The translations under genes and the position numbers were made by a program. A stretch of DNA of 64,000 nucleotides from Desulfosudis oleivorans (GTDB lineage: Bacteria; Desulfobacterota; Desulfobacteria; Desulfobacterales; SURF-7): NCBI GenBank assembly GCA_020723325.1, contig DYJD01000024.1:12906-76905 (forward strand). Direction: 5' to 3'. Under the pieces are notes generated by a model, which was not told the origin of the DNA, did not search any database, and saw only the letters and a list, made by a program, of their open reading frames with translations. Below, piece by piece: positions 8 to 44,777 of this stretch (positions are counted from its first letter, which is position 1; the number at the start of each line of letters is the position of its first letter).

Positions 8-1591
8 ATGCGCAGCCGGGTTAAGAGCGTTTTAAGTCTATTGCTGGAACAGAATCAATTGGAGCAGGTGGTGCGGGCCCTGACCGCCATGACCGGGCTA
101 TCCTATTTTTTGCCGGAGCAGTATGCCAAATTCCAACCCGTGGTGATGGAGGCCATGGTATTTCTTTTAAAAGAAATGCCCCTTGAAAGGCTGGCTGAAA
201 AAATCGTCGACCAGTTGCTGCTTTCCCCGGAAGCCCAGCCGGCGGTTCGCATGTGTGCCTTGGTCAAGGACATGCCTTGCATTCAGAAACTGGGACAGGT
301 CATCTGCCGCTCTCCCGGACTTGATCCGATCTTCAAGCAGGCCCTGGTGGACCTGGAAGATAACCTGAAAACCGTTGACTTCCACCAAATTCGGCCTGGG
401 ATTGTGCGGGAGCTCAAGGGCCTGCCTGCCGGCAACCGGCTGATAGCCCAGGGACGGATTCTGGCTGAAGCCAGTGTTTGCGCCGTGGTTCCGGCGGAGA
501 TGATTCCCCAAGGGGAAAGGGCTGCTGTTCCGGCTGTGATCAAAGTGGTCAAGCCCAAGGTGCGTAAAAATCTGGCCGCCGACCTCAAATTGCTTACGCG
601 CCTGGCGGCATTTCTGGACCAACATAAAGCCGCCTGGGGGCTGCGGGAATTTAATTTTGCCGGAACTCTTCAACAGGTACGCCGCTTGCTCGAGAACGAG
701 ATCGATCTATCCGCCGAGCAAATCAATCTGACCACGGCGGCTGAATATCACCGCAAAAACAAGCATCTGATCGTGCCCGCCTTGTTGCCGGTTTCAACCC
801 CGCAGATGACCGTGATGTCCCGGGAGGACGGCTGCAAGATTACGGCAGTGGAGCAGTTGAACCCAAAGCAGCGGCGCCTGCTGGCCGAGGCCTTGACCAA
901 AACCTGCATTCTCAGCCCCCTTCAGGATCTTGGTGAAATCAGCATTTTTCACGGTGATCCCCATGCCGGAAATATCGCCTACCGTTTTACGGAAGACCGG
1001 CCCCAGATCATTTTTTATGACTGGGCCATGTTGGGCCGCCTCAGCCGCCTGGAGCGGTTTCTGATGGTTTTGCTGTCCTTTGGCTTGCTGTTTTCCAGCA
1101 AACGCGCTGTTTTTTTTGCCGCAGATCTGATCACCCAGGGCCAGATTTCAAAAGATGATCAGGTTGAAAAGGAAGTCCTGGATGTGATCGATAAGGTCTT
1201 TCAGCAAAACAAAGGTGGAGCCAAAGGGCTTTTTGGAAGCATTGAGGCTTTTTTCGAAGAGCTTACCTATATGGGAATCGTGTTTTCAAATGATTTGATG
1301 ATGTATGAAAAGGCGGCTGTGACCCTGAAGGGCGTGCTGGCGGACATTGATCCTGACTTTGACCGCAATGATTATCTCATCTGGGCCGGCATGGCCGCTT
1401 TCCTGAGCGATCTTACGCATCTGCGCATCCACCGGGTCATCCTGGAGGAGATCTGGGCCTACTATCGTTCCCGGTCCGGCCGGCTGCTTGAATTGCAAAA
1501 GGAAATCGGTGTCCTTTTCATGCGCGCCTGTTGGCACTGGATGAAGCGGCCGGTGCAATTCATGGGGGGGAGATCCTTCGTTAACAATTAA
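8..1591 (+). CDS. ABC1/UbiB-family atypical protein kinase (start may lie at or beyond the window edge)
   Basis: 527-aa ORF. ABC1-type motifs IQKLGQVICRSPGLDP...LVDLEDN and FHGDPHAGNI. Hydrophobic segment near aa 345-365. Confidence 0.8.
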   Translation: MRSRVKSVLSLLLEQNQLEQVVRALTAMTGLSYFLPEQYAKFQPVVMEAMVFLLKEMPLERLAEKIVDQLLLSPEAQPAVRMCALVKDMPCIQKLGQVICRSPGLDPIFKQALVDLEDNLKTVDFHQIRPGIVRELKGLPAGNRLIAQGRILAEASVCAVVPAEMIPQGERAAVPAVIKVVKPKVRKNLAADLKLLTRLAAFLDQHKAAWGLREFNFAGTLQQVRRLLENEIDLSAEQINLTTAAEYHRKNKHLIVPALLPVSTPQMTVMSREDGCKITAVEQLNPKQRRLLAEALTKTCILSPLQDLGEISIFHGDPHAGNIAYRFTEDRPQIIFYDWAMLGRLSRLERFLMVLLSFGLLFSSKRAVFFAADLITQGQISKDDQVEKEVLDVIDKVFQQNKGGAKGLFGSIEAFFEELTYMGIVFSNDLMMYEKAAVTLKGVLADIDPDFDRNDYLIWAGMAAFLSDLTHLRIHRVILEEIWAYYRSRSGRLLELQKEIGVLFMRACWHWMKRPVQFMGGRSFVNN

Positions 1592-1681: not shown

Positions 1682-2269
1682 TCACGGTCTCTTCCGAACC
1701 TGCTCCGGCTTTCCCTGGGCGGCTTCCATTTTCTGCATCCGCCTTTCCAGCCGGTCAATGCGCGCGGCCAGGCTGTTGATCTCATCCTTGGAGGCCAGAT
1801 TCATCACCTGAAAGACCTCATTGATGCGGCGGTCGATGCGGTCGCTCACCCATTTCTTCAGGGAATCCGAATAGCCGATGATTTCTTTTTTCAGAGTGCT
1901 GCCTTCGGATTTGGAAAGCTCCTTGTCCCGCACGAGCAAATTGACGACCTTGTCCACCTCGTCTTCCGCCATGGTCAGGGCATTCTGCCACAGGGAGGTA
2001 TATTTCTTGGCATAATCGGTCAGGGTGCCGCCACCCTTGCGCAGTAGCTGCATCAACACCTTGGAGGAAACGATCTTGTCCTTGTCTTTTTTCTCCCGGC
2101 CGATGAGCTGGGATACAATGGCGGCGGTCAAGTCTTCGCCGGTGCGATTATCCACAATGGATACCTCTTCACCGGACTTGATCAGCTCGGCAAGTTCGTT
2201 CATGGAGATATAGCGCTTATCAGTCATGTCATACATTTTGCGATTGGCGTATTTTTTGATCTGATGCAT
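1682..2269 (-). CDS. phaR: PhaR-like regulator: PHB/PHA-accumulation-regulator N-terminal DNA-binding domain fused to a phasin-type C-terminal module
   Basis: Internal Met chosen (MHQIKKYANRKMYDMTDKRYISMNELAELIKSGEEVSIVDNRTGEDLTAAIVSQLI equals the PhaR N-domain consensus). C-terminus ...VMNLASKDEINSLAARIDRLERRM matches the phasin (PF05597-type) tail. Confidence 0.8.
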   Translation of the reverse strand: MHQIKKYANRKMYDMTDKRYISMNELAELIKSGEEVSIVDNRTGEDLTAAIVSQLIGREKKDKDKIVSSKVLMQLLRKGGGTLTDYAKKYTSLWQNALTMAEDEVDKVVNLLVRDKELSKSEGSTLKKEIIGYSDSLKKWVSDRIDRRINEVFQVMNLASKDEINSLAARIDRLERRMQKMEAAQGKPEQVRKRP

Positions 2270-2385
2270 CCGGCCTCCAGGCTTGACAGTAGCGGTTCTT
2301 GATTTCGTGAAAGCCCATTTTTTCAATTCCGCCTGCTTTTGTCAATCGGGCTGAATAAAAAATTAAAAAAACCAAAAAAAATATC

Positions 2386-2414
2386 TTGACAAACATGACG
2401 CACTGCATCATATT
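2386..2414 (+). promoter_or_regulatory. Sigma-70-like promoter for the phasin gene (TTGACA-N17-CATATT), overlapped by a TGACGCA direct repeat
   Basis: TTGACA at 2386-2391 and CATATT at 2409-2414. TGACGCA at 2396-2402 and 2422-2428. A second possible pair is TTGCAC 2413-2418 with TATACT 2435-2440. Confidence 0.4.
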
Positions 2415-2514
2415 GCACTCGTGACGCAACGCGTTATACTCCTCCGGCCGGTTAGGCCGAAATCCGATGTTATGAAAAACAGTTCAACATAATTTAAATT
2501 TTGGGAGGCATACC

Positions 2515-3189
2515 ATGGCACAGGTAAAAAGCAAAACCCGCAAGACCGTTAAGAAAGAAAAGGTCAAAACCCCTTCCCGTTTTTATGTGGTTCGAAATCT
2601 CCAGGAAGCCCGTGACAACCTGACAGACCGTCTTGATGAGTACAATGCAAAATACATCAAGAAGCCCATTGAGAACGGCAAGGAATTTGTGGAAGACCTG
2701 AAAAAAGATCCGCGCAAAACCCTCGAGACCCTGGTGGATGATGGCAAGGACATGATTGAGGATGTCAAGAAAGACGCCCGCAAGAAAATCGACACCCTGG
2801 TGGATGACGGCAAGGCCTTTCTGAAAAAGGCCAAGAAAGACCCCAAGAAGGCTTTCAACCAGTTGGTGGATGACGGCAAAGAATTTATTGAGGAGCTGAA
2901 AGACGATACCCGCGGTAAATTGGATAATCTCATTGAAGATTACAAGACGGTGCTGAAGGGAATCGAAAAAGACGCGCGGATGGTGAAAAAAGATCTCCTT
3001 GACAACGGCAAAAAGGTTATGGACAAAGTGCCCGGCAAACAAAAGATCGAGAAGAAAATCTCCAGCACCATCAAATCCATTCCATCCCAGCTCAACATGC
3101 CCAGTAAAAAAGACATTGACAGTTTGGTGCGAGGCATGAAAGAATTAAATGAAAAAGTGGATACGCTGAGCAAAGTATACGCCGCATAA
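2515..3189 (+). CDS. Phasin-like PHA/lipid-granule-associated protein with internal LVDDGK repeats
   Basis: ATG follows GGGAGG. Highly charged, with four repeats of K(K/D)D-x-(R/K)K-x5-LVDDGK. C-terminal NMPSKKDIDSLVRGMKELNEKVDTL matches the phasin tail motif. Confidence 0.75.
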   Translation: MAQVKSKTRKTVKKEKVKTPSRFYVVRNLQEARDNLTDRLDEYNAKYIKKPIENGKEFVEDLKKDPRKTLETLVDDGKDMIEDVKKDARKKIDTLVDDGKAFLKKAKKDPKKAFNQLVDDGKEFIEELKDDTRGKLDNLIEDYKTVLKGIEKDARMVKKDLLDNGKKVMDKVPGKQKIEKKISSTIKSIPSQLNMPSKKDIDSLVRGMKELNEKVDTLSKVYAA

Positions 3190-3268
3190 TTTCCGCGCCC
3201 CCACCCTCTTGCCGGTTTTCGTTTCCTAAATCCCTTGGGGAACCGCCGCCTGAGACCAGAACAAGCAT

Positions 3269-3302
3269 CGCCGCTCCGACCCTCACCATGGTCGGAGCGG
3301 CG
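3269..3302 (+). other. Perfect 13-bp stem / 8-nt loop hairpin downstream of the phasin gene (no U-tract)
   Basis: cgccgctccgacc-ctcaccat-ggtcggagcggcg. Confidence 0.5.
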
Positions 3303-3375
3303 ATTATATGAAAAAAACCCGAACAAACTAAAAACAAACAGATCCGAAACATCGCATCAGGATAAAGGAGGAGTC

Positions 3376-3852
3376 ATGCTTACGATTAAAAAATACAGCA
3401 ATGGGAAACTGTACGACACGCTGAACAAGGAATATATTTCCAAGGAGCAACTGGCCGAAATTGTCAAAAACAAGAAGAAGTTCAAGGTGGTTCTCAGCAC
3501 CACCGGCAAAGATGTGACCAAATCCATCATCGAGCAGGTAGCGGCAGCGACCAATGAGAAAAACGAAAAGGCGTTGAAACCGGAAAACATCAAAAAATGG
3601 ATTGGGAACCAGATCGATAAACGCATCAACAAAATTCTAGGGATCATGAATTTGCCCACCAAGGATCAAATCAACAAGCTGAATGCCGGCCTGAAGAAAC
3701 TGGCCCAGAAAGTCGAAGATCTGGAAAAAATTCACGCTCAAAAAATCGCCAGGCTGCAGAAAGAACAATCCAAGCAGGCTACAGCCGCGGAAAGCGCAGC
3801 CATGCTGGATCCGGATGCGGTTGAAATCATGTCCATGAACCACAACGCCTAG
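3376..3852 (+). CDS. Second PhaR-N/phasin fusion protein (paralog)
   Basis: ATG at 3376 follows AAGGAGGA. MLTIKKYSNGKLYDTLNKEYISKEQLAEIV matches the PhaR N-domain. ...IMNLPTKDQINKLNAGLKKLAQKVEDLEK matches the phasin tail. Confidence 0.75.
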   Translation: MLTIKKYSNGKLYDTLNKEYISKEQLAEIVKNKKKFKVVLSTTGKDVTKSIIEQVAAATNEKNEKALKPENIKKWIGNQIDKRINKILGIMNLPTKDQINKLNAGLKKLAQKVEDLEKIHAQKIARLQKEQSKQATAAESAAMLDPDAVEIMSMNHNA

Positions 3853-3918
3853 GTTCAGCCGCGCATAGAGCACGGAATGACCTTCGGAAGAACGGCCCGA
3901 ACATATGCTTCCGATCCA

Positions 3919-3964
3919 AGGGCTCGCGCAAGAATAAATTACGATTTGTATTTACGCGAGCCCT
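3919..3964 (+). other. 10-bp perfect inverted repeat (AGGGCTCGCG / CGCGAGCCCT) with a 26-nt AT-rich loop
   Basis: Read directly. Lies 67 nt after the stop of the 3376-3852 gene. Confidence 0.4.
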
Positions 3965-4175
3965 CTGAAGGTTTCTCACCGGCTTTTTCGGGTGATGACC
4001 TTTAATTGCAATTCCAATATCTTTTCATTCAATTGTTTGTAAAAATTCATGCCTGTTTTAGGAGAGGCGGCCCTCGTCCGCATTTTTTATGTTGCTTTTT
4101 TTTTGCTGTAGGATATTTTAACATAGGTCAAGTTTTCGATATATTAAATCTTTTTGGTTGATGAGGAGCGGTAGT

Positions 4176-5837
4176 ATGGCCGAACGAATGACCAATGCCG
4201 ATAATTTCTGGCTCTGTATGGATGATCCCACCAATCTGATGGTGATCACCGCTTTCATGGAGTTTGAATCCCTGGTTGATTACAACCGGCTCTATGCTAC
4301 CATTGAAAGCCGTCTGGCCTCCTTTCCGCGTTTTCAAAAGCGGATAGTCCGGCCCAAATCCGGTATCGGCCTGCCATACTGGGAAACCGATCCCAACTAT
4401 GACTTGAAATCCCATATCATTCGGGTGGCCTTGCCGGCTCCGGGGGACAAAAATGATCTGCAGGCCATGATCTCCAATCTCACCATTACCCCGCTGGACC
4501 CGAACAAGCCCCTTTGGCAGATTCATTTGATTGAAAATTACGGCAAGGGTTGCGTCATTTTTTATCGGATTCATCATTGCATTGCCGACGGCATTGCCCT
4601 GATCCATGTTCTGCTGAACGCGGCGGATACGGATCCCAAGGCGCCTTGGCCCAAAAGTGAATCCAAAAAGAAAACCGGTAAACCTTCGCGGCGCCCGACC
4701 CTGTCCGTGGATGCCGTGATTCGCAAGGTGCAAGATGCGGTGGGCGCAGGTCGAAAAATGAGCGTGAAGATTATCCGGGAGGTTGAAAATGCCATATCCG
4801 ACCCGGCCAATCTCAAGAAGCTCGCAAAAAGCGCAACCTGCCTGCCAACGGATTTTGCGTCCGTTCTTTCCAAGTATACCATCATGAGTTCCGACCCGGA
4901 TACGGCTTTTAAAGGCAAAATCGGAGTGCGTAAAAAGGTGGTCTGGACCGAACCCATGGCCCTTGACAAGATCAAGACCGTGGGCAAAGCCATCAGTACC
5001 GCCACCCTCAATGATGTGCTCATTGCCACGGTAACCGGTGCCATGCGGCGTTATTTAAAAACCCGCAAGACGCCGGTAAATGAATTGGACTTACGGGTGA
5101 CGGTTCCGGTTAATATCCGCAAAGCCGGCACCGCCTTTGAACTTGGCAACAAGTTCAGCCTTGTGTTTCTGCCTCTGCCGGTCTATTTGGAAGACCCGGT
5201 ACTGCGCTTAAAGGAAGTCAAACGGCGCATGGATCAATTAAAACGATCACCGGATCCTTATATCAATTTCGGCTTGCTCAGCGCCATGGGTTATCTGCCG
5301 CCGGCCCTGGCCCGCCAGGTCTCACAGTTTTTCGGCAAAAAGGCCTCCGGTGTCATGACCAATGTGCCCGGCCCTAAACAACCCCTGTATTTTGCCGGAA
5401 AGAAAATCAACAACATCATGTTTTGGGTGCCCCGTTCCGGCAAGATCGGCCTGGGCATCAGCATCCTGAGTTATGACGGCAAGGTAACGGTGGGCATCGC
5501 TTCCGACGAAAAATTGATGCCGGACCCGGAAGTGCTGCTGGAAGGTTTTGAGGAGGAGTTCAACTTTTTGTTGAATCTGGTGAAATCCGGAAAAATATAC
5601 GATGAACCCCTGGTCCTGCATGACCGCTATCAGGAAGCCAAAGCCGCCAAAGCCCAAAAAAAGGAAACCCTCGAAAGCAGCGAGGCAAGCCACTGCCTGG
5701 CGGAAACCAAAAGCGGCAAGCCATGCCGGCGAAAACCGCTGCCCGGATCGGAATTTTGCAGCGTCCATCAGCAAATCAATGAAGAGGAAATTCAATTGCA
5801 GGATGTGGCGCAAATCATGCGGGAGTTGATACGGTAG
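4176..5837 (+). CDS. Wax ester synthase/diacylglycerol acyltransferase (WS/DGAT) family O-acyltransferase with a C-terminal Cys/His tail
   Basis: Catalytic HHxxxDG (HHCIADG, nt 4572-4592). N-terminal DNFWL...; C-terminal region NVPGPKQPLYFAG. ATG at 4176 lies 7 nt after GAGGAG. Confidence 0.88.
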   Translation: MAERMTNADNFWLCMDDPTNLMVITAFMEFESLVDYNRLYATIESRLASFPRFQKRIVRPKSGIGLPYWETDPNYDLKSHIIRVALPAPGDKNDLQAMISNLTITPLDPNKPLWQIHLIENYGKGCVIFYRIHHCIADGIALIHVLLNAADTDPKAPWPKSESKKKTGKPSRRPTLSVDAVIRKVQDAVGAGRKMSVKIIREVENAISDPANLKKLAKSATCLPTDFASVLSKYTIMSSDPDTAFKGKIGVRKKVVWTEPMALDKIKTVGKAISTATLNDVLIATVTGAMRRYLKTRKTPVNELDLRVTVPVNIRKAGTAFELGNKFSLVFLPLPVYLEDPVLRLKEVKRRMDQLKRSPDPYINFGLLSAMGYLPPALARQVSQFFGKKASGVMTNVPGPKQPLYFAGKKINNIMFWVPRSGKIGLGISILSYDGKVTVGIASDEKLMPDPEVLLEGFEEEFNFLLNLVKSGKIYDEPLVLHDRYQEAKAAKAQKKETLESSEASHCLAETKSGKPCRRKPLPGSEFCSVHQQINEEEIQLQDVAQIMRELIR

Positions 5838-5899
5838 TATCGATGGAACAATTTGGATCGGTTTGATTTGAATTTTGTGGAAAGAAGGGGAAAGATAAA

Positions 5900-6103
5900 G
5901 TGAAAGCGCATTGGCCGGCAATTGCGGCAGGGCTCGGCAAGATCAAGGAAGGGCTGGCACCTGTCTATTATACGGTTGTCAAACTGCCGCTGATGTTGTT
6001 TACGATCGTTTTCGGATTCCTGCTCGAATTTCTGGTTGAATTGCCTTTTATCGCGCTGGTACTTCTGGATTATCGCTCCAATATCAAAAAAAGTCATCGC
6101 TGA
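5900..6103 (+). CDS. Small hydrophobic protein (hypothetical)
   Basis: 67-aa ORF with a GTG start after GAAGGGGAAAG. One to two predicted TM helices. Same strand within the operon. No recognisable family. Confidence 0.3.
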   Translation: MKAHWPAIAAGLGKIKEGLAPVYYTVVKLPLMLFTIVFGFLLEFLVELPFIALVLLDYRSNIKKSHR

Positions 6104-6173
6104 ATCACTCATCTGAACAACATGGCGCGGCATTTGTCGGGGATACGGATCAACCATCACAACGGACATTGCT

Positions 6174-6410
6174 TTGCCGAATAAATTAAAAAAAATGAAG
6201 GAAAACATTGAGGGCCGATATTATGTGGATGACGCCTGCATCGGCTGCACCTTGTGCGCTGAAATCGCGGCGGACAATTTTCGGTCCAATCTGCAAGAAG
6301 GCTACGAATATGTGTATAAGCAACCGGCCTCGGTGGAGGAGGAGCGGCTCTGCTTGGAAATGATGGATATCTGCCCGGTGAACGCCATCGGCAATGACGG
6401 GGATATATAA
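6174..6410 (+). CDS. Small single-cluster Fe-S ferredoxin
   Basis: CIGCTLC...CP (YYVDDACIGCTLCAEIAADNF ... MDICPVNAIG). Start ambiguous (TTG 6174 or ATG 6195). Confidence 0.75.
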   Translation: MPNKLKKMKENIEGRYYVDDACIGCTLCAEIAADNFRSNLQEGYEYVYKQPASVEEERLCLEMMDICPVNAIGNDGDI

Positions 6411-6440
6411 ATTCGCAATAACGGATGACAGGAGGAGCCT

Positions 6441-8504
6441 GTGAAGAAGGTCATCAGCATCAGTTTAGGGCCAAGCGCCAGGGATTATGAATTTGAGACC
6501 GAATTTCTGGGTCAGGATTTCATCATCAAACGGATCGGAACCGACGGGGATATGGAAAAAGCCGCGGCCCTGCTGTTGAAATGGGACAAGGAAGCCGCGG
6601 CCATCGGCTTGGGCGGCATCAAGGCCCCCTACGGCATCGGCCCCCGTTATTTGGCCAAGAAGCGTCACAACAAATTGAACGAGCTGGGTGTGCAAATCCA
6701 GACCCCTGTCACCATGGGACACAAACTGCGGGATGTTTCCTTTGAATGGTCCCTGCGCTATCTCGAATACAAATTCGGCAATTATTTCAGTAATGCCAGG
6801 GTCCTGTTCTTTTCCGGCATGACCAGCTACCGCATTGCCAAGGTCATGTCCGAATTCACGGATAATCTGACCTTTGCCGATCCGATCCTGGAAAACGGCA
6901 TTCCCAAATTCATCAACTCCCTCGGTGAGCTGGAATCCTATGCCCATGGGGTTCATGAAGTTCTGCAATGGGTGCCCAGCAAGCGGCTCACCGGCTCGGT
7001 TGCGCCGCTCCAGTCCTGGAACGACTACATCCTGCGCAAGGCCATGCAGAAAGCCAACATTCTGGTGGTTCCCAATTATGATTTTTATGATTACCTGAAA
7101 AATACTTCCATTGAGGAACTGGGCGGCAAAACCATCATCACTTCCACGGCCGAAGACGAGAAGATCACCTTTTTAAAGGAACGGGGCGTGGATGTGATCA
7201 TCGACACCACCCCCAAAATTCTGGAGCGCGTGGTGCCGCCCAATCTTCTGGAGGCCTTGATCATCGCTGCCATGGGCCGGAACCGGGACCAGGTCAGATC
7301 CGACGACCTCTTGGAAATCATCAGCGCCCAGAAAATGGATCCTCGCATTGTTTACCCTTCGGGCAGTCCCAAGCGCATCAACCGTTTTGCCTTTGTCATT
7401 CACCCCCTGTCCAAGGAATTCCTGAAAAAAGACAAGGCCGTTGATTTCATCTCCGGCTTTGCACCGCCGGCCTTTTTGGATGCCGTGGAAAAAGTGATCG
7501 CCTATGCCCCGCCCTGGGTATATTCCCGGGTCACCGGAATCAAGTCCCCCACCGGCGCCGAAACAGAAGGCTGGTTGATCACCGTGGGCGGCACCCCCAA
7601 GCAGATGCTGGCCCACAGTCCGGAATTCACCTACACCCGTCTGCTCCAGGCCGCGCGCATGGCCAAACGTCTGGGGGCTCAGATCATGGGACTCGGGGCT
7701 TTTACCAAGGTTGTGGGCGACGCCGGGGTAACCGTGGCCAAAAAAGCCGAGATTCCCATTACCACCGGCAACAGCTACAGCGCTTCCGGGGCCTTATGGG
7801 CCGCAGCGGATGCGGTGCGGCGCATGGGCCTGATCAAGATTGAAAAAGGCAAACGGATCATGGGCAAAACCATGGTGCTGGGCGCCACCGGCGCCATCGG
7901 CTCGGTTTGTTGCCGTTTGTTGGCCACGGCCTTTGACGAGGTTTACATGGTGGGCCGCAATACCGCCAAGTTGATGGCCCTTAAGGAAAGCATTCTGCTG
8001 GAAAATCCGACCGTGAAAATCAAAGTGACCACCCGGCCGGACAAATTCGTGGAAGACATGGATGTCATCGTGACCGCCACTTCCGGCGCCGGCAAGACGG
8101 TGCTGGACATCACCCGGGTCAAGCCGGGATGTGTCATCACCGATGTGGCCCGGCCCTTGGATCTGTCGCCGGAAGATGTGGCCAAACGGCCGGATGTGCT
8201 GGTGATTGAATCCGGCGAGATCGAACTCCCCGGCAATCCGGAGATGAAAAGCATCGGTCTGCCCCACAAGGTGGCCTATGCCTGCCTTGCGGAAACCATT
8301 GTGCTGGCCCTGGAAGGCCGCTTTGAGGTGTTTACCATCGGCCGGGACATTGAATGGGAGAAGGTCAAGGAAATCTATAAATTGGGTTTGAAACACGGCA
8401 TGAAGCTCGCAGCCATTTCCGGTGTGAACGGCGTATTTTCGGATGAGGATATTGCGCGGGTCAAAAAGCTCGCCCTGGAAGCCAGAAAAGCGGCATTGAA
8501 TTAG
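6441..8504 (+). CDS. Two-domain oxidoreductase, paralog 1: unknown N-terminal ~320-aa domain plus an acyl-ACP-reductase (AAR)-like NAD(P)-binding C-terminal half, with the Cys retained
   Basis: GTG follows AGGAGGAG. Ordered motifs GLGAFTKVVGD, TTGNSYSA, Rossmann VLGATGAIGS, YACLAETIVLALEG and LGLKHGMKL parallel cyanobacterial AAR (ALGGFTSII, TTGNTHTAY, VVGATGDIGS, FACFAEAMLLEFEG, VRHGFQPL). Confidence 0.7.
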   Translation: MKKVISISLGPSARDYEFETEFLGQDFIIKRIGTDGDMEKAAALLLKWDKEAAAIGLGGIKAPYGIGPRYLAKKRHNKLNELGVQIQTPVTMGHKLRDVSFEWSLRYLEYKFGNYFSNARVLFFSGMTSYRIAKVMSEFTDNLTFADPILENGIPKFINSLGELESYAHGVHEVLQWVPSKRLTGSVAPLQSWNDYILRKAMQKANILVVPNYDFYDYLKNTSIEELGGKTIITSTAEDEKITFLKERGVDVIIDTTPKILERVVPPNLLEALIIAAMGRNRDQVRSDDLLEIISAQKMDPRIVYPSGSPKRINRFAFVIHPLSKEFLKKDKAVDFISGFAPPAFLDAVEKVIAYAPPWVYSRVTGIKSPTGAETEGWLITVGGTPKQMLAHSPEFTYTRLLQAARMAKRLGAQIMGLGAFTKVVGDAGVTVAKKAEIPITTGNSYSASGALWAAADAVRRMGLIKIEKGKRIMGKTMVLGATGAIGSVCCRLLATAFDEVYMVGRNTAKLMALKESILLENPTVKIKVTTRPDKFVEDMDVIVTATSGAGKTVLDITRVKPGCVITDVARPLDLSPEDVAKRPDVLVIESGEIELPGNPEMKSIGLPHKVAYACLAETIVLALEGRFEVFTIGRDIEWEKVKEIYKLGLKHGMKLAAISGVNGVFSDEDIARVKKLALEARKAALN

Positions 8505-8515
8505 AGGAGGTCAGG

Positions 8516-10573
8516 TTGAAACAGATCATTGACATCAGCTTGGGACCCAGTCGGAATGATTACGAACTTGAAACCAAGTTCATGAATCAGAAGTTTCGTA
8601 TCCGTCGCTTTGGGACGGATGGTGATTTTGAGCAGGCGAAGGATTTGATGCTGCAATGGAATAAGAAAGCCGATGCCATCGGCCTGGGCAGCATCAAATT
8701 CCCGGACAGCGTGGGCCGAAAAGCCAAAATGGATCCGGAAACCGAAAAGCTCCTCAAACTCGGGAAAACCCTGGAAACACCGGTCACCATCGGCAAGACC
8801 CTGCGCATGGTGGGCCATGAATGGTCCCTGCGGCACACCCAATTCAAATTCGGCAACAATTATTTCAACAATGCCCGGGTGCTTTTCTTTTCCGGCATGA
8901 TGAGCCACAACATTGCCCAGGTCATGTCCGAATATACGGACAATATGCATTTTGCCGATCCATTGATCGAAAACGGCCTGCCGCGTTTGATCAGCTCCAT
9001 GGATGAATTCATGCTGTATGCCGCCAAAGTCCGGCCGGCCATGAAATGGATCCCCGGCAACCGCTTCCTGTCGGATGCCAAGCCGATCCGCTCCATCAAT
9101 GATTATCTGCTGCGTCAGGAGGCCCAGAAGGCCCAGATCCTGGTGGTTTCCCATTATAATTTTTACAAGCACCTGGAATTATTGGGCGCGGATGATTTAA
9201 GCGGCAAGACCGTGATCACTTCAACGGCTTATGACGACCGGGTGGAATTTTTAAAGGAACGGGGAGTGGATGTGATCATCGACACCACGCCGGCCCTGAT
9301 CAAGGAAGTCGTCGGGGTCTGTGTTCTGGAAGCCATGCTCATCGCGGCCTTGAATCTTCCCAAGGATCAGCGCGGCCGGGACGATCTTTTGGAAATCATC
9401 TCGGAAATGAACATGGAACCGCGCATCATTTACCCGGCGGGCCGGCCCCGGCGGGTCAACCGCTTTGCCTACCTCGTGCATCCCCTGAACCAGGATTTTC
9501 TGAAAAAGCTTAAGCCCATTGAGGTTTTGGCCGATATAACCCCTGGTGTCATGGGGGTGGTGGAGAAGGCCATGGCCTATTCCCCGCCCTTTGTGTACTC
9601 CAAAGTGACGGGCATCAAATCCGAAACCGGCGTGGAAGCCGAAGGCTGGCTCATCGCCCTGGGGGAAACCCCGGAGCAGATGCAGGCCCATCCGCCCGAG
9701 TTTACAAAGAAGCGCATTTTACAAGCGGCCCGCATTGCCAAAAGCCTGGGGGCTCAGATCATGGGGATCAGCATCCTCCCGCGCTCGATGAAAGACTCCA
9801 GTCTGGATGTGGCCAAGCATGCGGTGTTGCCCATCACCACCGGTAACAGCTATGTTGCTTCCGCCGCTTTGTGGGCTGCGGCGGAAGCCGTGCGCCGCAT
9901 GGGTTTTGCCAAGCTGAAGCGTGGTAAGATTCTGAGCGCCAAAACCATGGTGATCGGTGCCACCGGCCCGGTGGGTGTTATCTGTTCACGTTTGCTGGCC
10001 CGGGCTTTTGAAGAAGTTTATCTGGTGGGCCGTAATATCGCCAAACTGTTGGCCCTGCAGGAGTCCATTCTGAAAGAAGCCCCGAAAGTAAAATTGCATG
10101 TTTCCACCCGGGCCGATACTTTCCTGGCGGACATGGATGTGATTGTGGCCGCCAGTTCCGGGGCCGACCGGGTGCTGGACATCATGCAGGTCAAACCGGG
10201 CTGCGTGATCACGGACATTACCAGACCCATGATGTTTTCAAGGGAGGAAGCGGAACGGCGCCCGGATGTTCTCATCATCCGCAGCGGTGAAATTCTGCTG
10301 CCCGGGGAGCATGTTGAAATGAAAGATATCGGACTGCCGGAGAGCGTGGCCTATGCCGGCCTGGCCGAGACCATTGTCCTGGCCTTGGAAGGCCGCTTCG
10401 AGACCTATACCGTCGGCAGTTCACCCCAGTGGGATAAAGTCCGTGAAATCTATCGTCTGGGCTTGAAACACGGCATGAAGCTCGCGGCCATTTCCAGCGT
10501 GGACGGCGTCATCAGCGATGAGGATATCGAAAAAGTGAAAGAACTGGCCGTCAAGGAGTTGCAGAAAGGATGA
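8516..10573 (+). CDS. Two-domain oxidoreductase, paralog 2: same architecture, but Gly replaces the AAR-equivalent Cys
   Basis: TTG follows GAGGAGG. Collinear with paralog 1 over the full length. VIGATGPVGV Rossmann motif. YAGLAETIVLALEG (Gly codon 10358-10360, versus Cys codon 8283-8285 in paralog 1). Confidence 0.7.
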   Translation: MKQIIDISLGPSRNDYELETKFMNQKFRIRRFGTDGDFEQAKDLMLQWNKKADAIGLGSIKFPDSVGRKAKMDPETEKLLKLGKTLETPVTIGKTLRMVGHEWSLRHTQFKFGNNYFNNARVLFFSGMMSHNIAQVMSEYTDNMHFADPLIENGLPRLISSMDEFMLYAAKVRPAMKWIPGNRFLSDAKPIRSINDYLLRQEAQKAQILVVSHYNFYKHLELLGADDLSGKTVITSTAYDDRVEFLKERGVDVIIDTTPALIKEVVGVCVLEAMLIAALNLPKDQRGRDDLLEIISEMNMEPRIIYPAGRPRRVNRFAYLVHPLNQDFLKKLKPIEVLADITPGVMGVVEKAMAYSPPFVYSKVTGIKSETGVEAEGWLIALGETPEQMQAHPPEFTKKRILQAARIAKSLGAQIMGISILPRSMKDSSLDVAKHAVLPITTGNSYVASAALWAAAEAVRRMGFAKLKRGKILSAKTMVIGATGPVGVICSRLLARAFEEVYLVGRNIAKLLALQESILKEAPKVKLHVSTRADTFLADMDVIVAASSGADRVLDIMQVKPGCVITDITRPMMFSREEAERRPDVLIIRSGEILLPGEHVEMKDIGLPESVAYAGLAETIVLALEGRFETYTVGSSPQWDKVREIYRLGLKHGMKLAAISSVDGVISDEDIEKVKELAVKELQKG

Positions 10574-12288
10574 TTTTGAAGAAGTTACAGGATTTCAGTC
10601 ATTCATTGACCCGTTACGTCGTCAACAACATCCCGACGCATCTGGTCAATACCGGCTATAATGCTTACAGCATGTTTTACAAGGGGCAGATCAATTACGG
10701 CCTGCCGGTGTCCCGGGACCTGATCCTCAGCCAGGAGGAGATTCGCACTGAAGCGGTTGGCAAACTGGCCCTGGCGCTCTATCATGTATTCTTGAACGCT
10801 GCCGGTTTGCAGATCCCACGGGATGACATCAAGCTGGTGATCGTTGATGAGCTGGAAAAAGGCCGGTTGCGGCTTACGGAAACCGTGATTCTATTAACTG
10901 AGGCCGATCTTCAATTTTTATGCTTGCAGCGTTTCAATATCCCCAAGGGTCAAGTGGCCACCATCCTGAAAGTGGCGCGCAAACGCAGAATCCTGAAAGA
11001 AGCCCTGCGCATGGAGGCGGTGCCGGTCTATTTTGAAAGCAAAATCGAGGAAGCCGTGCGCAACGGCCGCGGGGACTACGAAACCGTTTACTACCGCGAT
11101 TTTACGGATGAGGGCAAAGAGATCACCTTTCGCCGTTTGGTGAGCATGGAAGCCGTGACCGCCGGCGACAATCACCCGGCCGTGATCCTGGTGCCGGGTT
11201 TTGCCAACAACAGCAATTGTTTCAATATCAGCAACCGCTATTCCCTGGCCAAGGATATGGCCGACCGGGGCTACTGGGTGTATCTCTTCGATCCCAGGGG
11301 CGTGGGAGTCAACGAAGGCCGTTTTGACCCGTTATATACCGTGGATACCCTGATCGACTATGATCTTTCCACGGTTGTGCGTTTTTTGTTCGCCCGCAGT
11401 TGCGGCAAGCCCGCTATTCTACTGGGGCACAGCATGGGCGGCCTGGTTTCCGAGTACATGGTGCTGAACTGGTCTTTGCGCCGGCACCTGGATGATATTC
11501 CTACTTTACAACCAGACCAGAAAGAGATTCTCCATCAAGTGCTGCCACCCCTGGCGGATGTGGAAAACAACCTGAAGATGGTGCGCGGCATTGTTTCCTT
11601 GGGCGCGCCGAAATATTTTGAAAAAACTTCCCATCTTTTCTTCCCCACGGCATTGTGGTTGAACCATCTTTCCCGCATCTTCCGCTTCCGCCAGGTGCCG
11701 GTGCAGGAGATCTCCAAAGTAGTCACAGAATTACCCCTCCTCAAACAAATCGTCCGCTTTGTGGCCAACAACAATATCGGCGAGTTGAATTTTCTCATCT
11801 CCCCGGACAACCATCAGGAGGATAAATATTTTGTGGAACGCTACCTGAAAATCGCCACCCAATCCATCCCCCTGGGTCTGGGTTTTCAATGTTTGAAGGC
11901 CATCTACGACGGCAAAGGCTTTAAACGCATGGACGACAGCCGGCTGAACTACTCGGATTCCCTGCCCTGGTTCCCGGATGATATTCCCATTTTTCACTTC
12001 TGGGGTTCCAAGGACCAACTGGCTTCAGTCAACAACATTCGCTACAGCCGCCTGTATCCCCATCAAATCAAGAAAGTCTATCACCTATCCTCGGCCGCCG
12101 ATCTCAAGAAAGTCAGGATCAGCTCCGAACGCAGCCAATTGATCGACTTTGTCATCGAAGGCGCCAATCATCTGGATTTGCTGTACGGCAAAAAGGCGGA
12201 TGAAATCATTATGCCGCTTTTGATGAGGATTGTTGAAAAAACCTGGGGGGATTGGTCTTACAAAGGGCCGTTTTGCAAGGCAAGCTGA
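10570..12288 (+). CDS. Lipase/esterase-like alpha/beta-fold hydrolase with a ~190-aa N-terminal extension
   Basis: ATGA start/stop overlap with the upstream gene. Nucleophile elbow LLGHSMGG. SLAKDMADRGYWVYLFDPRG resembles the acid-lipase / class III PhaC-type N-terminal strand-helix pattern. Confidence 0.75.
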   Translation: MILKKLQDFSHSLTRYVVNNIPTHLVNTGYNAYSMFYKGQINYGLPVSRDLILSQEEIRTEAVGKLALALYHVFLNAAGLQIPRDDIKLVIVDELEKGRLRLTETVILLTEADLQFLCLQRFNIPKGQVATILKVARKRRILKEALRMEAVPVYFESKIEEAVRNGRGDYETVYYRDFTDEGKEITFRRLVSMEAVTAGDNHPAVILVPGFANNSNCFNISNRYSLAKDMADRGYWVYLFDPRGVGVNEGRFDPLYTVDTLIDYDLSTVVRFLFARSCGKPAILLGHSMGGLVSEYMVLNWSLRRHLDDIPTLQPDQKEILHQVLPPLADVENNLKMVRGIVSLGAPKYFEKTSHLFFPTALWLNHLSRIFRFRQVPVQEISKVVTELPLLKQIVRFVANNNIGELNFLISPDNHQEDKYFVERYLKIATQSIPLGLGFQCLKAIYDGKGFKRMDDSRLNYSDSLPWFPDDIPIFHFWGSKDQLASVNNIRYSRLYPHQIKKVYHLSSAADLKKVRISSERSQLIDFVIEGANHLDLLYGKKADEIIMPLLMRIVEKTWGDWSYKGPFCKAS

Positions 12289-14148: not shown

Positions 14149-15192
14149 CTAGGCTGTCTGTATTGCGGCATTTCTGAGGGTTTTTATTAAAAGATCCTTC
14201 TCCTCCGTAAAAATGGTGAGATAAACCGTATTGCCGTCTTCCTCCGATGCTGTGAAGGCGTTCACTGAAACCTTTTCCTCTTCCGCATTCGCTCCTTTAC
14301 TGTTTTCAGCGGCAATCTTCTCTTCCAAGTCTTCCAGCCCCCCTACGTAACCTTCCACTTTCCCTTTTACAACGATCCATATCTTGGACGATATGGGCGC
14401 CTCTTCGCCTGTATAAAAACGTTTTATCGTCGCGGCGGAAAAACTGTAGGAGACTTCCTTGTCGACCCTTGCGTCTATCGCCATCAGAGCGCCCCGCGTT
14501 GCGATGCCCACAAGAAGTTGGTCGGTGCCCAGCATGCGATGGGCCTCATGCATTATGGAAGGAGAAAGGATCGCTTCGGCGCTGTTATAATGCCCGGAAT
14601 AAAGGGCCACCGTCATATGGCCGCCTGTTCCCATCTTCTGCCATGAGCAGTCTCTTTGCAGCTCCCTTTCCAGATTTTTAAGGGCCTGCTCGTGGAGTTT
14701 TTCCCCCTTCATTCCCTCCGGCAGTTCCTTTTCGGTTATAAAATGGACCACCGTCCCTTTGTCGACGCCGTAACCTATGACGAGGAACTTTTCCTCATCA
14801 AGGGATTTTTCCCAGAAAGGCCGGACAATGGTCCCGCCCGGAGCGACTTTAGCGCCCCATTCGATAGGCTTCAGCACAGGCACTACGTCCAGTGGCGTCT
14901 CTTCCTTTATCGCTTTCTTTTCCTTTTCCTCAATCTTTTCCTTTATTTTTTCGTCTTCCTTTCTGCTGAATGCTGACCAAAGCATAAGCAGCCCAAAAAC
15001 CCCGCCGATAGTCCCAACAGGCCGGTTCCATATGAGGGCGAGAAAAAATTTCACCTTGTTCCCTCCGCGCCCGCTGACGTGGGCACTTACGAAAGTATCC
15101 AGGTGTTCAGGATGCATCCATATGGCGGCAGCCAGGGCCAATAAGGCGATCCCCATTATAAAACCAACTATCCTGTCCTTCATCTCGTCCAT
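14149..15192 (-). CDS. Hypothetical membrane-anchored protein (two N-terminal TM helices, Glu/Lys-rich linker, ~230-aa soluble domain)
   Basis: 347-aa ORF with plausible composition. No family recognised with confidence (weak DUF1444-like feel). Confidence 0.55.
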   Translation of the reverse strand: MDEMKDRIVGFIMGIALLALAAAIWMHPEHLDTFVSAHVSGRGGNKVKFFLALIWNRPVGTIGGVFGLLMLWSAFSRKEDEKIKEKIEEKEKKAIKEETPLDVVPVLKPIEWGAKVAPGGTIVRPFWEKSLDEEKFLVIGYGVDKGTVVHFITEKELPEGMKGEKLHEQALKNLERELQRDCSWQKMGTGGHMTVALYSGHYNSAEAILSPSIMHEAHRMLGTDQLLVGIATRGALMAIDARVDKEVSYSFSAATIKRFYTGEEAPISSKIWIVVKGKVEGYVGGLEDLEEKIAAENSKGANAEEEKVSVNAFTASEEDGNTVYLTIFTEEKDLLIKTLRNAAIQTA

Positions 15193-15521: not shown

Positions 15522-15920
15522 CTAAATCCAATTTTCTACCCGCAAAGCCTCGACTCTTTCAAATTCATTCGCGTTATTACTGACCAAGACAAGCCCTTCG
15601 CTACGTGCATGGCCGGCGATATGCAAATCATTCACACCGATTGTCATTCCCAGCTTTTCAAGGTTTGCCCGAATTGCGCCATAATGAGCAGCCGCTTTCA
15701 TACCGTATTCAAGAACCTCCAGACGTGAAGCAAAATCTTCGACCTGCCGCAGATTATGCTCCGGTCGTATGCTTTTTTCAGCTCCATGAAATAGCTCGGC
15801 AAGGGTGATTGATGATATCGACATCTGTCCTGCATGTAGGTTGAATGTTTCTAGAAGTTTCAATGGCTTTCGTTTAATCACGTAAATTACAATGTTGGTA
15901 TCTAGCATATACTTCAGCAT
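15522..15920 (-). CDS. vapC: Type II toxin VapC (PIN-domain ribonuclease)
   Basis: [13 protein letters not shown]... PIN acidic residues. 1-nt TGATG overlap with the upstream antitoxin. Confidence 0.9.
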   Translation of the reverse strand: MLKYMLDTNIVIYVIKRKPLKLLETFNLHAGQMSISSITLAELFHGAEKSIRPEHNLRQVEDFASRLEVLEYGMKAAAHYGAIRANLEKLGMTIGVNDLHIAGHARSEGLVLVSNNANEFERVEALRVENWI

Positions 15921-16153
15921 CAGAAGTCTTCTCTTTCTGACTGGATTTGTGAGGCGCGTTCAGCCATGAAATCATCGCTGACGTTATGCTCTGACATGAA
16001 AAAGCTGTCCCAGGTGCTCTCAGCAGGTGAAATAATCCGTTCTTTGCCAACGATACGAACGCTCACTTTCTTAATATTTTCCGGAAAGCGCATTTCAGCA
16101 GGAAGTCGAATCGCTTGCGTACGATTAGTTATAAATACAGAGCCCTGAGCCAT
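15920..16153 (-). CDS. vapB: Type II antitoxin VapB (AbrB/SpoVT-fold)
   Basis: [46 protein letters not shown] at 16153 follows GGAGGA. Confidence 0.85.
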
Positions 16154-16270
16154 ATAGTTCCTCCTTATTACTAATTGGGGACATCTTATAGGACTTACTA
16201 TGTATATGTCAAGCGTATATAGCATGGAGACCCAAAGCATAAAGCTTGGCTGTGTGCTTTTACTTGGGTT

Positions 16271-16388
16271 GGTCTTGATCATCATTTATGCCGTATCGCG
16301 GGTGAAAGCAGCTCCCTCAAAAAGAAGGACGGTCGCAACACGGAGGATTGCAGAAACAAGAAGGGCGGTCAAAACGATGATCAAGGCC
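16271..16388. repeat. Degenerate copy D of the REP-like nested palindrome, plus an extra terminal arm
   Basis: 16271-16343 aligns by hand to copy B (ggtcttgatcatcatttatgcc|gtatcgcgggtgaaagcagctccctcaa...). 16364-16388 (ggcggtcaaaacgatgatcaaggcc) repeats the right arm. Confidence 0.5.
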
Positions 16389-19538: not shown

Positions 19539-20557
19539 CGCCGGACGACCCCACGTATTATCAGCAGGGGGTACTGGCCGGCGACCGGCGCATCCTGGCC
19601 AAAACCATCACCCTGGTGGAAAGCTCCCTGCCGGCCCACCGCGGTCTGGCCCAGGCCATCCTGGAGCAGTTGCTGCCCTTTTCCGGCAAGGCCGTCCGCC
19701 TGGGTATCACCGGCGTGCCCGGGGTGGGCAAAAGCACTTTTATCGAAAGTCTGGGAATGCACTTGATCCATAGCGGCCGGCGGGTGGCCATCCTGGCCGT
19801 GGACCCCAGCAGCAGCCGCAGCGGCGGCAGCATTCTGGCGGACAAGACCCGCATGGAACAATTGGCCCGGGAACCCAAGGCCTATATCCGGCCTTCCCCC
19901 TCCCGGGGGGCTTTGGGCGGTGTGGGCCGCAAGACCCGGGAGAGCATCTGGGTCTGTGAGGCGGCCGGTTTTGATGTGATCATTGTGGAGACCGTGGGGG
20001 TGGGCCAGTCGGAAACCACGGTGGCGTCCATGGTGGACTTTTTCCTGGTGCTGATGCTGGCCGGGGCCGGGGATGAGTTCCAGGGCATTAAAAAAGGGAT
20101 TGTGGAACTGGCCGATGCTATTGTAATCAACAAGGCCGACGGCGACAATATGGAGCGGGCCCGACGCGCCCAAAGGGAGTATGAAAACGCCCTGCAATTG
20201 CTGCGACCCGCCACCAGGTTGTGGCGGCCGCCGGTTTTGACCTGCAGCGCCCTGACCCACACCGGCATCACGGCAGTATGGCGGAGCGTCTGCGATCATC
20301 ATGAAAAAATGAAGGCCGCCGGCGAGTTGGAAAACAAACGCCGGCATCAGGCCGTTGACTGGATGTGGCTGCTTATTGAAGAAGGACTGCGGGAGCGTTT
20401 TCAATGTCATCCGGAGGTGCGCAGCCGGCTTTCCGGGTTTGTCAAAGAAGTGGAAAAAGGTGTGATCAGTCCCACCTCTGCTGCTAACAATCTATTACAG
20501 TTGCTGGATCATCCCGGCAGCAAACTAAAAGGATCGAACCATGGGCAAGGTTGCTGA
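19535..20557 (+). CDS. meaB: Methylmalonyl-CoA mutase-associated GTPase MeaB/ArgK
   Basis: P-loop GVPGVGKST and NKAD motif. Overlaps the mutase stop. Confidence 0.9.
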
Positions 20558-22094: not shown

Positions 22095-22136
22095 TAGACC
22101 TGAACCTTTTTATCCGAGACGATATTCGGAGTGACC

Positions 22137-22370: not shown

Positions 22371-22397
22371 ATATTATCAGGAAGCAGGGAGAAAAAT

Positions 22398-24446: not shown

Positions 24447-24459
24447 GGAGGAGCTTACC

Positions 24460-25623: not shown

Positions 25624-25638
25624 GAGAGGAAGGAAAAG

Positions 25639-41658: not shown

Positions 41659-41672
41659 GGAAATTGTTTCCT

Positions 41673-43061: not shown

Positions 43062-43084
43062 GATAAAGCTTGGAAGGAAACAGC

Positions 43085-44752: not shown

Positions 44753-44777
44753 CAAGCCTTTCCAGGCGCGAGGAGCC

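Follow-up and report, generated by a model that had tools for sequence, protein, structure and literature searches.

A candidate neutral-lipid storage locus with an AAR-type reductase module and PhaR/phasin-like proteins in Desulfobacterales

Here, we analyze a locus within a 64,000-nucleotide window of the genome of Desulfosudis oleivorans (contig DYJD01000024.1, positions 12,906 to 76,905 of the forward strand; all coordinates below are those of the window, i.e., of this whole stretch of DNA). The locus combines genes for a WS/DGAT acyltransferase, a ferredoxin, two paralogous proteins related to fatty acyl-ACP reductase (AAR) and here called ParA and ParB, and a lipase-like hydrolase with genes for a phasin and two PhaR-like proteins of the polyhydroxyalkanoate (PHA) type. 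Based on sequence comparisons and structure models, we consider it fairly probable that the locus functions in neutral-lipid storage in anaerobic Desulfobacterales, most likely in the form of wax esters and possibly also of triacylglycerol. This proposal is built on the predicted fold and active site of ParA and on the recurrence of the gene combination, far beyond chance, in dozens of species-level genomes.

ParA (687 residues; 6441 to 8504, plus strand) and ParB (685 residues; 8516 to 10573, plus strand) are 59% identical, and in both proteins the C-terminal ∼375 residues (313 to 687 in ParA) are the region that matches AAR and PigE. Against the N-terminal thioester-reductase domain of PigE (positions 1 to 359 of NCBIfam NF053554), these halves give E-values of 1e-53 for ParA and 4e-40 for ParB, and against the AAR model TIGR04058 they give 5e-19 and 7e-9, respectively. 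In the PDB, the C-terminal half matches PigE (4ppm, E 4e-27) and then AAR (6jzq, E 5e-13). By contrast, models for shikimate dehydrogenase, ornithine cyclodeaminase and glutamyl-tRNA reductase match the Rossmann core only, at E-values of 1e-3 to 1e-5, and AAR and PigE outrank the dehydrogenase families by ∼14 orders of magnitude. The AlphaFold2 model of full-length ParA (pLDDT 85, pTM 0.83) gives a similar picture. In a fold search, it superposes on the AAR structures 6jzq and 6jzu with TM-scores of 0.71 to 0.74 (E 1e-19, 22 to 24% identity), followed by the TAD domain of the carmabin pathway (TM-score 0.62 to 0.64), then by unrelated folds at ∼E 1e-8 or weaker, and by shikimate/quinate dehydrogenases at ∼E 1e-5. 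By sequence and by model, the C-terminal half of ParA is assigned the fold of an AAR/PigE-type acyl-thioester reductase. The preliminary description of this DNA, made from the sequence alone, had raised the prospect that the C-terminal halves group with amino-acid or shikimate dehydrogenases; instead, AAR and PigE rank first in sequence as well as in fold. An identity as shikimate or amino-acid dehydrogenase, as in the source label “predicted amino acid dehydrogenase,” is therefore rejected on E-values (1e-3 to 1e-5 compared to 1e-19 to 1e-53) and, consistently, on the results of the fold search.

In AAR and PigE, an active-site Cys holds the acyl group ahead of hydride transfer (PMC8341465). 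Cys615 of ParA, in the motif YACLAE, is aligned in register with Cys294 of AAR and with its counterpart in PigE, and is retained in 80 of the 81 ParA-type sequences from 80 related loci. ParA also retains the Gly-rich loop for NAD(P)H (GATGAIGS), which is conserved in the ParA-type and ParB-type sequences of these loci alike, and has no Fe-S motif. Given the shared AAR fold, nucleotide loop and Cys register, the chemistry expected of ParA is reduction of an acyl thioester to the aldehyde by way of an acyl-Cys intermediate. ParB keeps the nucleotide loop (GATGPVG) and lacks the GLGAFTK motif, and in all 30 ParB-type orthologs a Gly stands in place of the catalytic Cys (YAGLAE). ParB is therefore a conserved partner that is probably non-catalytic. 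Thus, of the two AAR-like reductases initially proposed, the likeness to AAR holds for both C-terminal halves, while ParB, lacking the catalytic Cys, does not qualify as a second reductase.

The N-terminal half of ParA (residues 1 to 312; 6441 to 7376) has no sequence match in Pfam, NCBIfam or the PDB. When 1.84 billion proteins, each representing a cluster at 50% identity, were searched, 749 relatives of it were found at E ≤ 1e-3; they occur either fused, in proteins of ∼690 residues, or stand-alone, in proteins of ∼300 residues; on the two contigs that were checked, stand-alone homologues lie in unrelated gene contexts. The half is modeled with a pLDDT of 91 as a two-lobe alpha/beta fold, for which Foldseek returned weak matches (TM-scores 0.36 to 0.48) to sugar-binding proteins, AAR, malic enzyme and glutamate dehydrogenase. 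An hhalign comparison between the N- and C-terminal halves of the family covers 191 columns with a probability of 62% and an E-value of 7e-5, and places AIGLGG...TPVTxG in register with IMGLGAFT...IPITTGNSY and FSGMTSY in register with GATGAIGS. We suggest, with moderate confidence, that the N-terminal half arose by duplication of the AAR fold and has since degenerated, with loss of the Cys as well as of the nucleotide loop. If so, the ParA-ParB pair would contain four AAR-like modules of which one is catalytic.

The conservation of the gene neighborhood provides the link to lipid storage. Close relatives of ParA number in the thousands, are 73 to 92% identical to it and carry only the source labels “dehydrogenase” or “predicted amino acid dehydrogenase.” One genome per species was scanned for ParA relatives, which are present in at least 579 species-level genomes, and the best 80 loci, i.e., those closest to ParA, were studied (numbered with the prefix L where individual loci are named). 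They come from Desulfobacterales, Desulfatiglandales and their allies, including Desulfamplus magnetovallimortis, strain NaphS2 and Desulfonema magnum, and also take in the Delta1, Delta3 and Delta4 symbionts of Olavius. Neighbors were counted by tblastn mapping and by de novo clustering of adjoining open reading frames (ORFs), with a radius of 10 kb for the 37 of the 80 loci that have complete flanks. In these 37 loci, ParA is accompanied by WS/DGAT in 28, by a ∼615-residue protein joining an iron-type alcohol dehydrogenase to an SCP2 domain (Fe-ADH-SCP2) in 25, by the ferredoxin in 23, by a PhaR-N gene in 21, by a phasin in 20, by the hydrolase in 19 and by ParB in 17. In 49 of 75 loci, the gene immediately preceding that of the ParA homologue encodes a ferredoxin, and in 23 of 27 loci, the hydrolase gene follows that of ParB. 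Across all 80 loci, the neighbors also include a 230-residue protein without a Pfam family (21 loci), patatin-like lipases of two families (18 and 7 loci), an ABC1 kinase (15 loci), an acyl-CoA-binding protein (ACBP; 9 loci), a long-chain acyl-CoA synthetase (8 loci), and an aldehyde:ferredoxin oxidoreductase together with a second Fe-ADH (5 loci). Thus, the gene set that had been proposed from this one stretch of DNA recurs across Desulfobacterales.

The order of these genes is not fixed. ParA homologues adjoin WS/DGAT, PhaR-N/phasin, ABC1 and hydrolase genes in at least seven gene orders in Desulfobacterales and related orders. Examples are ACBP-WS/DGAT-ParA, which is contiguous in six loci; WS/DGAT-FeADH-ferredoxin-ParA-phasin-PhaR-ABC1; and a divergent order in which FeADH, patatin, unknown, PhaR and phasin genes lie opposite WS/DGAT-ferredoxin-ParA-ParB-hydrolase. 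Because gene order varies among lineages, the linkage appears to have been kept by selection and not by recent common ancestry alone. Fe-ADH-SCP2 was not found in the 64-kb window. In the closest relative, L005, the ParA of which is 92% identical, its gene immediately precedes the ABC1 gene, the point at which the window starts. In relatives, Fe-ADH-SCP2, the patatin-like lipase and the 230-residue protein are encoded, for instance, at L005:463-3074, L001:2859-4709 and L012:5296-8841; in L005, all three precede the ABC1 gene. The aldehyde:ferredoxin oxidoreductase, which is of the tungsten type, and the second Fe-ADH follow directly after the hydrolase (L009:17597-19069, L012:17761-19680 and L017:17595-19481), which may indicate what the ferredoxin does or point to a catabolic branch.

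In the window, the genes of the locus were placed as maximal ORFs from the ORF list of the window and as gene calls from the organism's own 19-kb contig, which starts 323 nt to the left of the window. In this way and by Pfam and NCBIfam scans, every gene named in the preliminary description was found at essentially the coordinates given there. WS/DGAT (called at 4176 to 5837, plus strand; maximal ORF 4158 to 5837, 559 residues) is preceded by a promoter-like TTAACA-16-TATATT at 4118 to 4145, found by a promoter scan, and heads a run of same-strand genes that continues with a hydrophobic 67-residue ORF (5900 to 6103), the ferredoxin (called at 6225 to 6410, 61 residues; maximal ORF 6174 to 6410), ParA, ParB and the hydrolase (10570 to 12288, 572 residues). 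The tight packing described for this run is real, with gaps of 62, 70, 30 and 11 nt and an ATGA overlap at 10570 to 10573, by which the hydrolase is translationally coupled to ParB.

By sequence, WS/DGAT is a canonical member of its family. It scores 390.3 bits against TIGR02946 (curated cut-off 309.95), contains both the catalytic domain (PF03007, E 9e-37) and the C-terminal domain (PF06974, E 3e-44), matches the PDB entries 7nxg (E 1e-32) and 6chj (E 1e-24), and has the HHxxxDG active site as HHCIADG at residue 139 of the 559-residue ORF. The canonical enzymes of Acinetobacter and Marinobacter are ∼100 residues shorter (455 to 463 residues). The protein of the window carries a C-terminal extension of ∼85 residues with a Cys-rich segment (5690 to 5837); the similarity of this tail to the HGGxSTG domain of NCBIfam is weak and below cut-off (E 1e-4). 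The 67-residue ORF is among the gene calls of the organism's own contig, has a hydropathy plateau above 2 and occurs at the same position, with 56 to 61% identity, in L005, L006, L015 and L016, suggesting that it is probably a real small protein inserted into a membrane or a droplet. The ferredoxin is of the single-cluster 4Fe-4S type (PF13370, E 2e-16).

The hydrolase is an alpha/beta hydrolase that passes the cut-offs of PF12146, PF00561 and PF12697. The GHSMGG signature reported earlier for a lipase-like enzyme is confirmed as the nucleophile elbow at residue 286 (G286-H-S288-M-G-G), and Ser288, Asp482 (or Asp455) and His534 are invariant in 31 orthologs. Its N-terminal extension of ∼200 residues has no fold assignment, and the match to esterases and lipases in the PDB is confined to the region of the nucleophile elbow. 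An identity as PhaC or PhaZ was considered and rejected, as neither matched by hidden Markov model at E ≤ 0.01 in the Pfam and NCBIfam scans. In loci of the Olavius Delta1 type, a second, divergent WS/DGAT-like gene (27 to 29% identity) follows ParB in place of the hydrolase (L003:15474-16532, L033:8331-9617 and L081:11001-12278).

Upstream of this run lie the genes for PHA-type proteins. The phasin (2515 to 3189, plus strand) scores 41.0 bits against PF05597 (cut-off 28.8) and was rightly described as repeat-rich: by register and hydrophobic moment, residues 52 to 183 form six 22-residue amphipathic repeats, which are encoded by 66-nt DNA repeats (2675 to 3054). It consists of 21% Lys and 12% Asp, has a conserved C-terminal phasin motif and matches apolipoprotein families of Pfam weakly, below threshold. 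The gene for PhaR-like protein 1 (called at 1682 to 2269, minus strand, 195 residues; maximal ORF 1682 to 2326) is divergent from the phasin gene, and that for PhaR-like protein 2 (called at 3376 to 3852, plus strand, 158 residues; maximal ORF 3235 to 3852) follows it. Both proteins contain the PHB_acc_N domain PF07879 (70 bits, E 1.9e-19 and 57 bits, E 1.9e-15, respectively; cut-off 25) but score below the PhaR equivalog TIGR01848 (69 and 46 bits; cut-off 109.45), which they match in its N-terminal part only, and neither matches the usual PhaR C-terminal domain in the Pfam and NCBIfam scans. The C terminus is a phasin-like coiled coil in protein 1 and is short and phasin-like in protein 2. 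Thus, the earlier designation of both as PhaR-N/phasin fusions stands for the N-terminal part, while their phasin-domain matches (PF05597, 22.6 and 19.4 bits) fall below the Pfam gathering score of 28.8.

The promoter region of the phasin gene (2386 to 2437, plus strand), delimited by promoter scan, repeat search and conservation, contains a TTGACA −35 box followed by two candidate operators, 17-bp near-palindromes at 2395 to 2411 and 2421 to 2437 that are 26 bp apart. Operator 1 overlaps the −10 box, and the family consensus is ATRACGCA-N-TGCGTYAT. This block is kept almost base for base in eight loci, although the phasins encoded there are only ∼36 to 76% identical. Elsewhere in the window, including upstream of WS/DGAT, the motif does not occur within three mismatches. 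Because the layout of promoter and operators is that of the PhaR-PhaP architecture, the PhaR-like proteins are, by analogy, likely repressors of the phasin gene. Two further elements flank PhaR-like gene 2: a hairpin with a perfect, 100% complementary 15-bp stem (3267 to 3304), between the phasin gene and PhaR-like gene 2, is possibly a terminator or attenuator, and an inverted repeat with 21-nt arms on the 3′ side (3919 to 3964) is a candidate terminator that would separate PhaR-like gene 2 from the WS/DGAT operon.

We suggest a model whereby Cys615 in the C-terminal domain of ParA accepts a long-chain acyl group from acyl-CoA or acyl-ACP, and the acyl group is then reduced to the fatty aldehyde at the expense of NAD(P)H, while ParB would act as a structural or regulatory partner of ParA. 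The presence of ACBP and acyl-CoA synthetase among the neighbors weakly hints at acyl-CoA rather than acyl-ACP as the substrate. Fe-ADH-SCP2, the gene of which adjoins those of ferredoxin and ParA in relatives, would reduce the aldehyde to the fatty alcohol, and WS/DGAT would join the alcohol to acyl-CoA to give the ester. The phasin, with its 22-residue repeats, would coat the resulting droplets, and the hydrolase, like the patatin-like lipases in relatives, would mobilize the stored ester. The PhaR-like proteins would repress the phasin promoter through both palindromes until titrated off by droplets, as in the PhaR-PhaP circuit. The wax-ester operon proposed from the DNA alone is thus retained as regards the conserved lipid neighborhood and the AAR/PigE fold, and is amended in that only one paralog appears to be catalytic and the alcohol would be made by Fe-ADH-SCP2, encoded outside the window.

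Several observations weigh against this model. The score of ParA against the AAR equivalog TIGR04058 is far too low for membership (68.9 bits, and 35.4 bits for ParB, with a cut-off of 449.7 bits), and its architecture is different. The product of AAR-type enzymes is the aldehyde and not the alcohol, and the window does not contain the Fe-ADH-SCP2 gene. The ferredoxin has no place in the proposed scheme. WS/DGAT may make triacylglycerol alone, and some Desulfobacterales make PHA with PhaEC, which the PhaR-like proteins and the phasin could serve. In 5 of the 37 loci with complete flanks, including that of the cultured Desulfonema magnum, ParA lacks lipid genes in its vicinity. The surroundings of ParA in L084 and L076 consist of housekeeping genes, although L084 has an Fe-ADH lacking SCP2 ∼2.4 kb downstream. 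Distant ParA homologues, in Oleiphilaceae, Competibacteraceae and Desulfonema magnum, also have mostly housekeeping neighbors, which offer no hint of a function. As the 80 loci are the closest relatives of ParA, the sample is biased to one clade. Finally, the functional claims made here for the proteins of the locus are all computational.

Three other explanations were weighed, each of which is less well supported than storage of esters. The locus may be catabolic or bidirectional, which we regard as unlikely: the hydrolase would split wax esters, stored or taken up, Fe-ADH-SCP2 would oxidize the alcohol, and ParA, working in reverse as a CoA- or ACP-acylating aldehyde dehydrogenase, would feed β-oxidation, with the ferredoxin engaged in aldehyde oxidation. 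Reduction of a Cys-bound thioester is, by established chemistry, reversible, and growth at the expense of hydrocarbons and long-chain fatty acids, which are broken down, is widespread in Desulfobacterales. A hydrolase in the operon, patatin-like lipases and acyl-CoA synthetase in relatives, and the second Fe-ADH and tungsten-type aldehyde:ferredoxin oxidoreductase directly downstream in five loci, L009, L012 and L017 among them, would all fit such a function; however, the oxidoreductase is confined to these 5 of the 80 loci, and the first gene of the operon, which is also the commonest neighbor of ParA, encodes a synthase, WS/DGAT. Moreover, the presence of genes for a coat and its regulators implies the formation of droplets, and the characterized relatives AAR and PigE work reductively (PMC8341465).

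Still less probable, in our view, is that the PhaR-like and phasin genes serve a PHA system with PhaEC encoded elsewhere in the genome, that they adjoin WS/DGAT at most because storage is regulated in common, and that the Ser-hydrolase is a PHA depolymerase. PHB_acc_N and PF05597 were defined on PHA proteins, the operator pair lies upstream of the phasin gene only and not of WS/DGAT, and Desulfococcus, Desulfosarcina and Desulfonema reportedly form PHA granules and have a class III synthase (Hai et al., 2004). However, none of the ∼55 ORFs of the window that were scanned matched the PhaC, PhaE, thiolase or acetoacetyl-CoA reductase families, in agreement with the earlier statement that phaC, phaE, phaA and phaB are missing from it, and no PHA synthase, thiolase or reductase is among the annotated recurrent neighbor families of the 80 loci, the annotation having covered most but not all families that occur in at least five loci. 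The linkage of PhaR-N to WS/DGAT, Fe-ADH-SCP2, patatin and ParA survives several gene rearrangements, and the scores of the PhaR-like proteins and of the hydrolase given above place them outside the PhaR equivalog and the PhaC/PhaZ models. The least probable of the three is that the product of ParA and Fe-ADH feeds alkyl-glycerol ether lipids or a PigE-like secondary metabolite, with WS/DGAT making triacylglycerol only. Alkyl-glycerol ether membrane lipids are common in sulfate reducers, some genomes have ParA homologues without WS/DGAT, and PigE, the closest characterized relative, belongs to a pigment pathway. Fatty acyl reductases such as ElbD also serve ether-lipid synthesis (PMC11948995). 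By contrast, genes for alkyl-dihydroxyacetone-phosphate synthase, PlsA-like proteins, aminotransferases, polyketide synthases or non-ribosomal peptide synthetases are not among the annotated recurrent neighbors, and WS/DGAT is the commonest partner of ParA, with ACBP-WS/DGAT-ParA contiguous in the six loci mentioned.

Compared to known systems, the storage locus proposed here shares parts with several and matches none as a whole. AAR-type enzymes have so far been tied to alkane synthesis in cyanobacteria and to the PigE/TamH pigment pathways. With cyanobacterial AAR (6jzq, 6jzu, TIGR04058), ParA shares the fold of its C-terminal half, the GxTGxIGS loop and the register of the catalytic Cys. 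It differs in being twice as long, with a degenerate AAR-like N-terminal half, in scoring far under the equivalog cut-off, in being paired with a Cys-less paralog and in lying with WS/DGAT and Fe-ADH-SCP2 in anaerobes and not in an alkane pathway. Aldehyde-deformylating oxygenase (ADO), the partner of AAR in that pathway, and ferritin-like di-iron families were found neither in the ORF scans of the window nor among the annotated recurrent neighbors, no dedicated ADO model having been run. The PigE/TamH proteins of prodigiosin and tambjamine synthesis (4ppm) are the best sequence match to the C-terminal half and have the same conserved Cys, and their domain has been assigned as a thioester-to-aldehyde reductase (PMC8341465). 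In PigE, however, the reductase is joined to an aminotransferase of class III and its substrate, in the synthesis of a pigment, is a short branched thioester, whereas the fusion partner in ParA is the degenerate AAR-like domain and the locus has no aminotransferase.

The known routes to wax esters, in which WS/DGAT works with a reductase of the FarA (Maqu_2220) type, the AcrB (Maqu_2507) type, Acr1 or FcrA, have in common with the locus a canonical WS/DGAT and the logic of converting an acyl thioester to an alcohol and then to an ester. The known reductase families are absent from the locus, however, and the candidate is a two-domain AAR-type protein plus Fe-ADH-SCP2, with the ferredoxin alongside. 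Among WS/DGAT-bearing bacteria, FarA is present in 1%, AcrB in 31% and FcrA in 26%, and many lack all three (PMC11948995). A further class of reductase is, therefore, to be expected. The PhaR-PhaP circuit of Cupriavidus and Paracoccus likewise has a PHB_acc_N domain, a divergent pair of regulator and phasin genes and tandem operators over the phasin promoter; here, by contrast, the regulators are two paralogs with a phasin-like coiled-coil C terminus, and their partners are neutral-lipid genes instead of phaC. Pseudomonas PhaF, Rhodococcus TadA/MLDS and the exchangeable apolipoproteins offer the concept of a DNA-binding module fused to a granule-binding one and of coats with amphipathic repeats. 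They differ in domain order and in the DNA-binding fold, and with the sub-threshold Pfam apolipoprotein matches as the sole sequence evidence, this is an analogy and not membership. ParA falls outside the AAR equivalog and the PhaR-like proteins outside canonical PhaR by score, yet most likely they work like AAR and PhaR, respectively.

In a search of the open-access literature, we found neither a description of the locus nor a report that an AAR-type enzyme takes part in wax-ester synthesis or that PhaR/phasin genes are linked to WS/DGAT. What is new here is, therefore, a candidate reductase module together with PHA-type coat and regulator proteins in a storage pathway for wax esters or triacylglycerol. 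The locus offers a testable candidate for the reductase of WS/DGAT bacteria, and does so in abundant sulfate reducers of marine sediments and in animal symbionts. If the proposal is correct, the AAR fold would extend from cyanobacterial alkane and pigment pathways to anaerobic storage lipids, the N-terminal domain family (749 clusters, without a Pfam model) would gain its first functional lead, and PHA-type regulators and phasins would be able to serve non-PHA droplets. It would also affect the reading of wax esters and fatty alcohols as biomarkers in anoxic sediments, and could provide oxygen-independent parts for the production of fatty alcohols and wax esters. More tentatively, and with doubt somewhat outweighing belief, we propose that Desulfobacterales and their relatives, including symbionts of gutless worms and the magnetotactic Desulfamplus, make wax esters anaerobically by way of a fourth class of acyl reductase, consisting of a tandem-AAR heteromer with one of four modules catalytic, Fe-ADH-SCP2 and a dedicated ferredoxin, and that they have co-opted a PhaR/phasin circuit to neutral-lipid droplets.

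The gene convergent with that of PhaR-like protein 1 encodes an ABC1-family atypical kinase (8 to 1591, plus strand; PF03109, E 4e-25), as previously noted. Its 5′ end is cut by the edge of the window, and the full call is 572 residues. The kinase passes the general ABC1 domain only and scores far below the cut-offs of the UbiB equivalogs (130 vs. 487 bits for TIGR01982; 73 vs. 667 bits for NF003404). Homologues with at least 50% identity adjoin PhaR-N in L003, L044, L047, L081, L005 and L006.

The window contains neither a tRNA nor a member of an Rfam family. To the right of the hydrolase, the minus strand encodes a 347-residue protein (14149 to 15192) with a hydrophobic N terminus, a Glu/Lys-rich linker and no Pfam match, which was also called on the organism's own contig, and a PIN-domain (VapC-like) toxin with a MazE/AbrB-like antitoxin gene upstream (15522 to 16285). 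A block of methylmalonyl-CoA pathway genes follows (17409 to 26514; mutase, MeaB, carboxyltransferase, a biotin-carrier/5S transcarboxylase subunit and succinyl-CoA synthetase) with a G+C content of 0.58 to 0.62 compared to 0.46 to 0.55 in its flanks. At 26899 to 28800, where the G+C content falls from ∼0.57 to 0.44, a gene for a DUF4143 protein (minus strand) and one for an IS200-like Y1 transposase (plus strand) may mark a mobile-element junction. A membrane fatty-acid desaturase of family PF00487 is encoded at 29694 to 30770; desaturases of this family are normally oxygen dependent, and the organism appears to be strictly anaerobic. Riboflavin genes are also present, as is a gene for a 924-residue protein in which an MFS-like membrane region is joined to a spermidine-synthase domain and TPR repeats (61213 to 63987, minus strand). 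Finally, a cluster at 39598 to 47087 encodes PrkA, a YeaH-like DUF444 protein, SpoVR and a second PrkA, a module that, in other bacteria, is associated with the response to stress and starvation.

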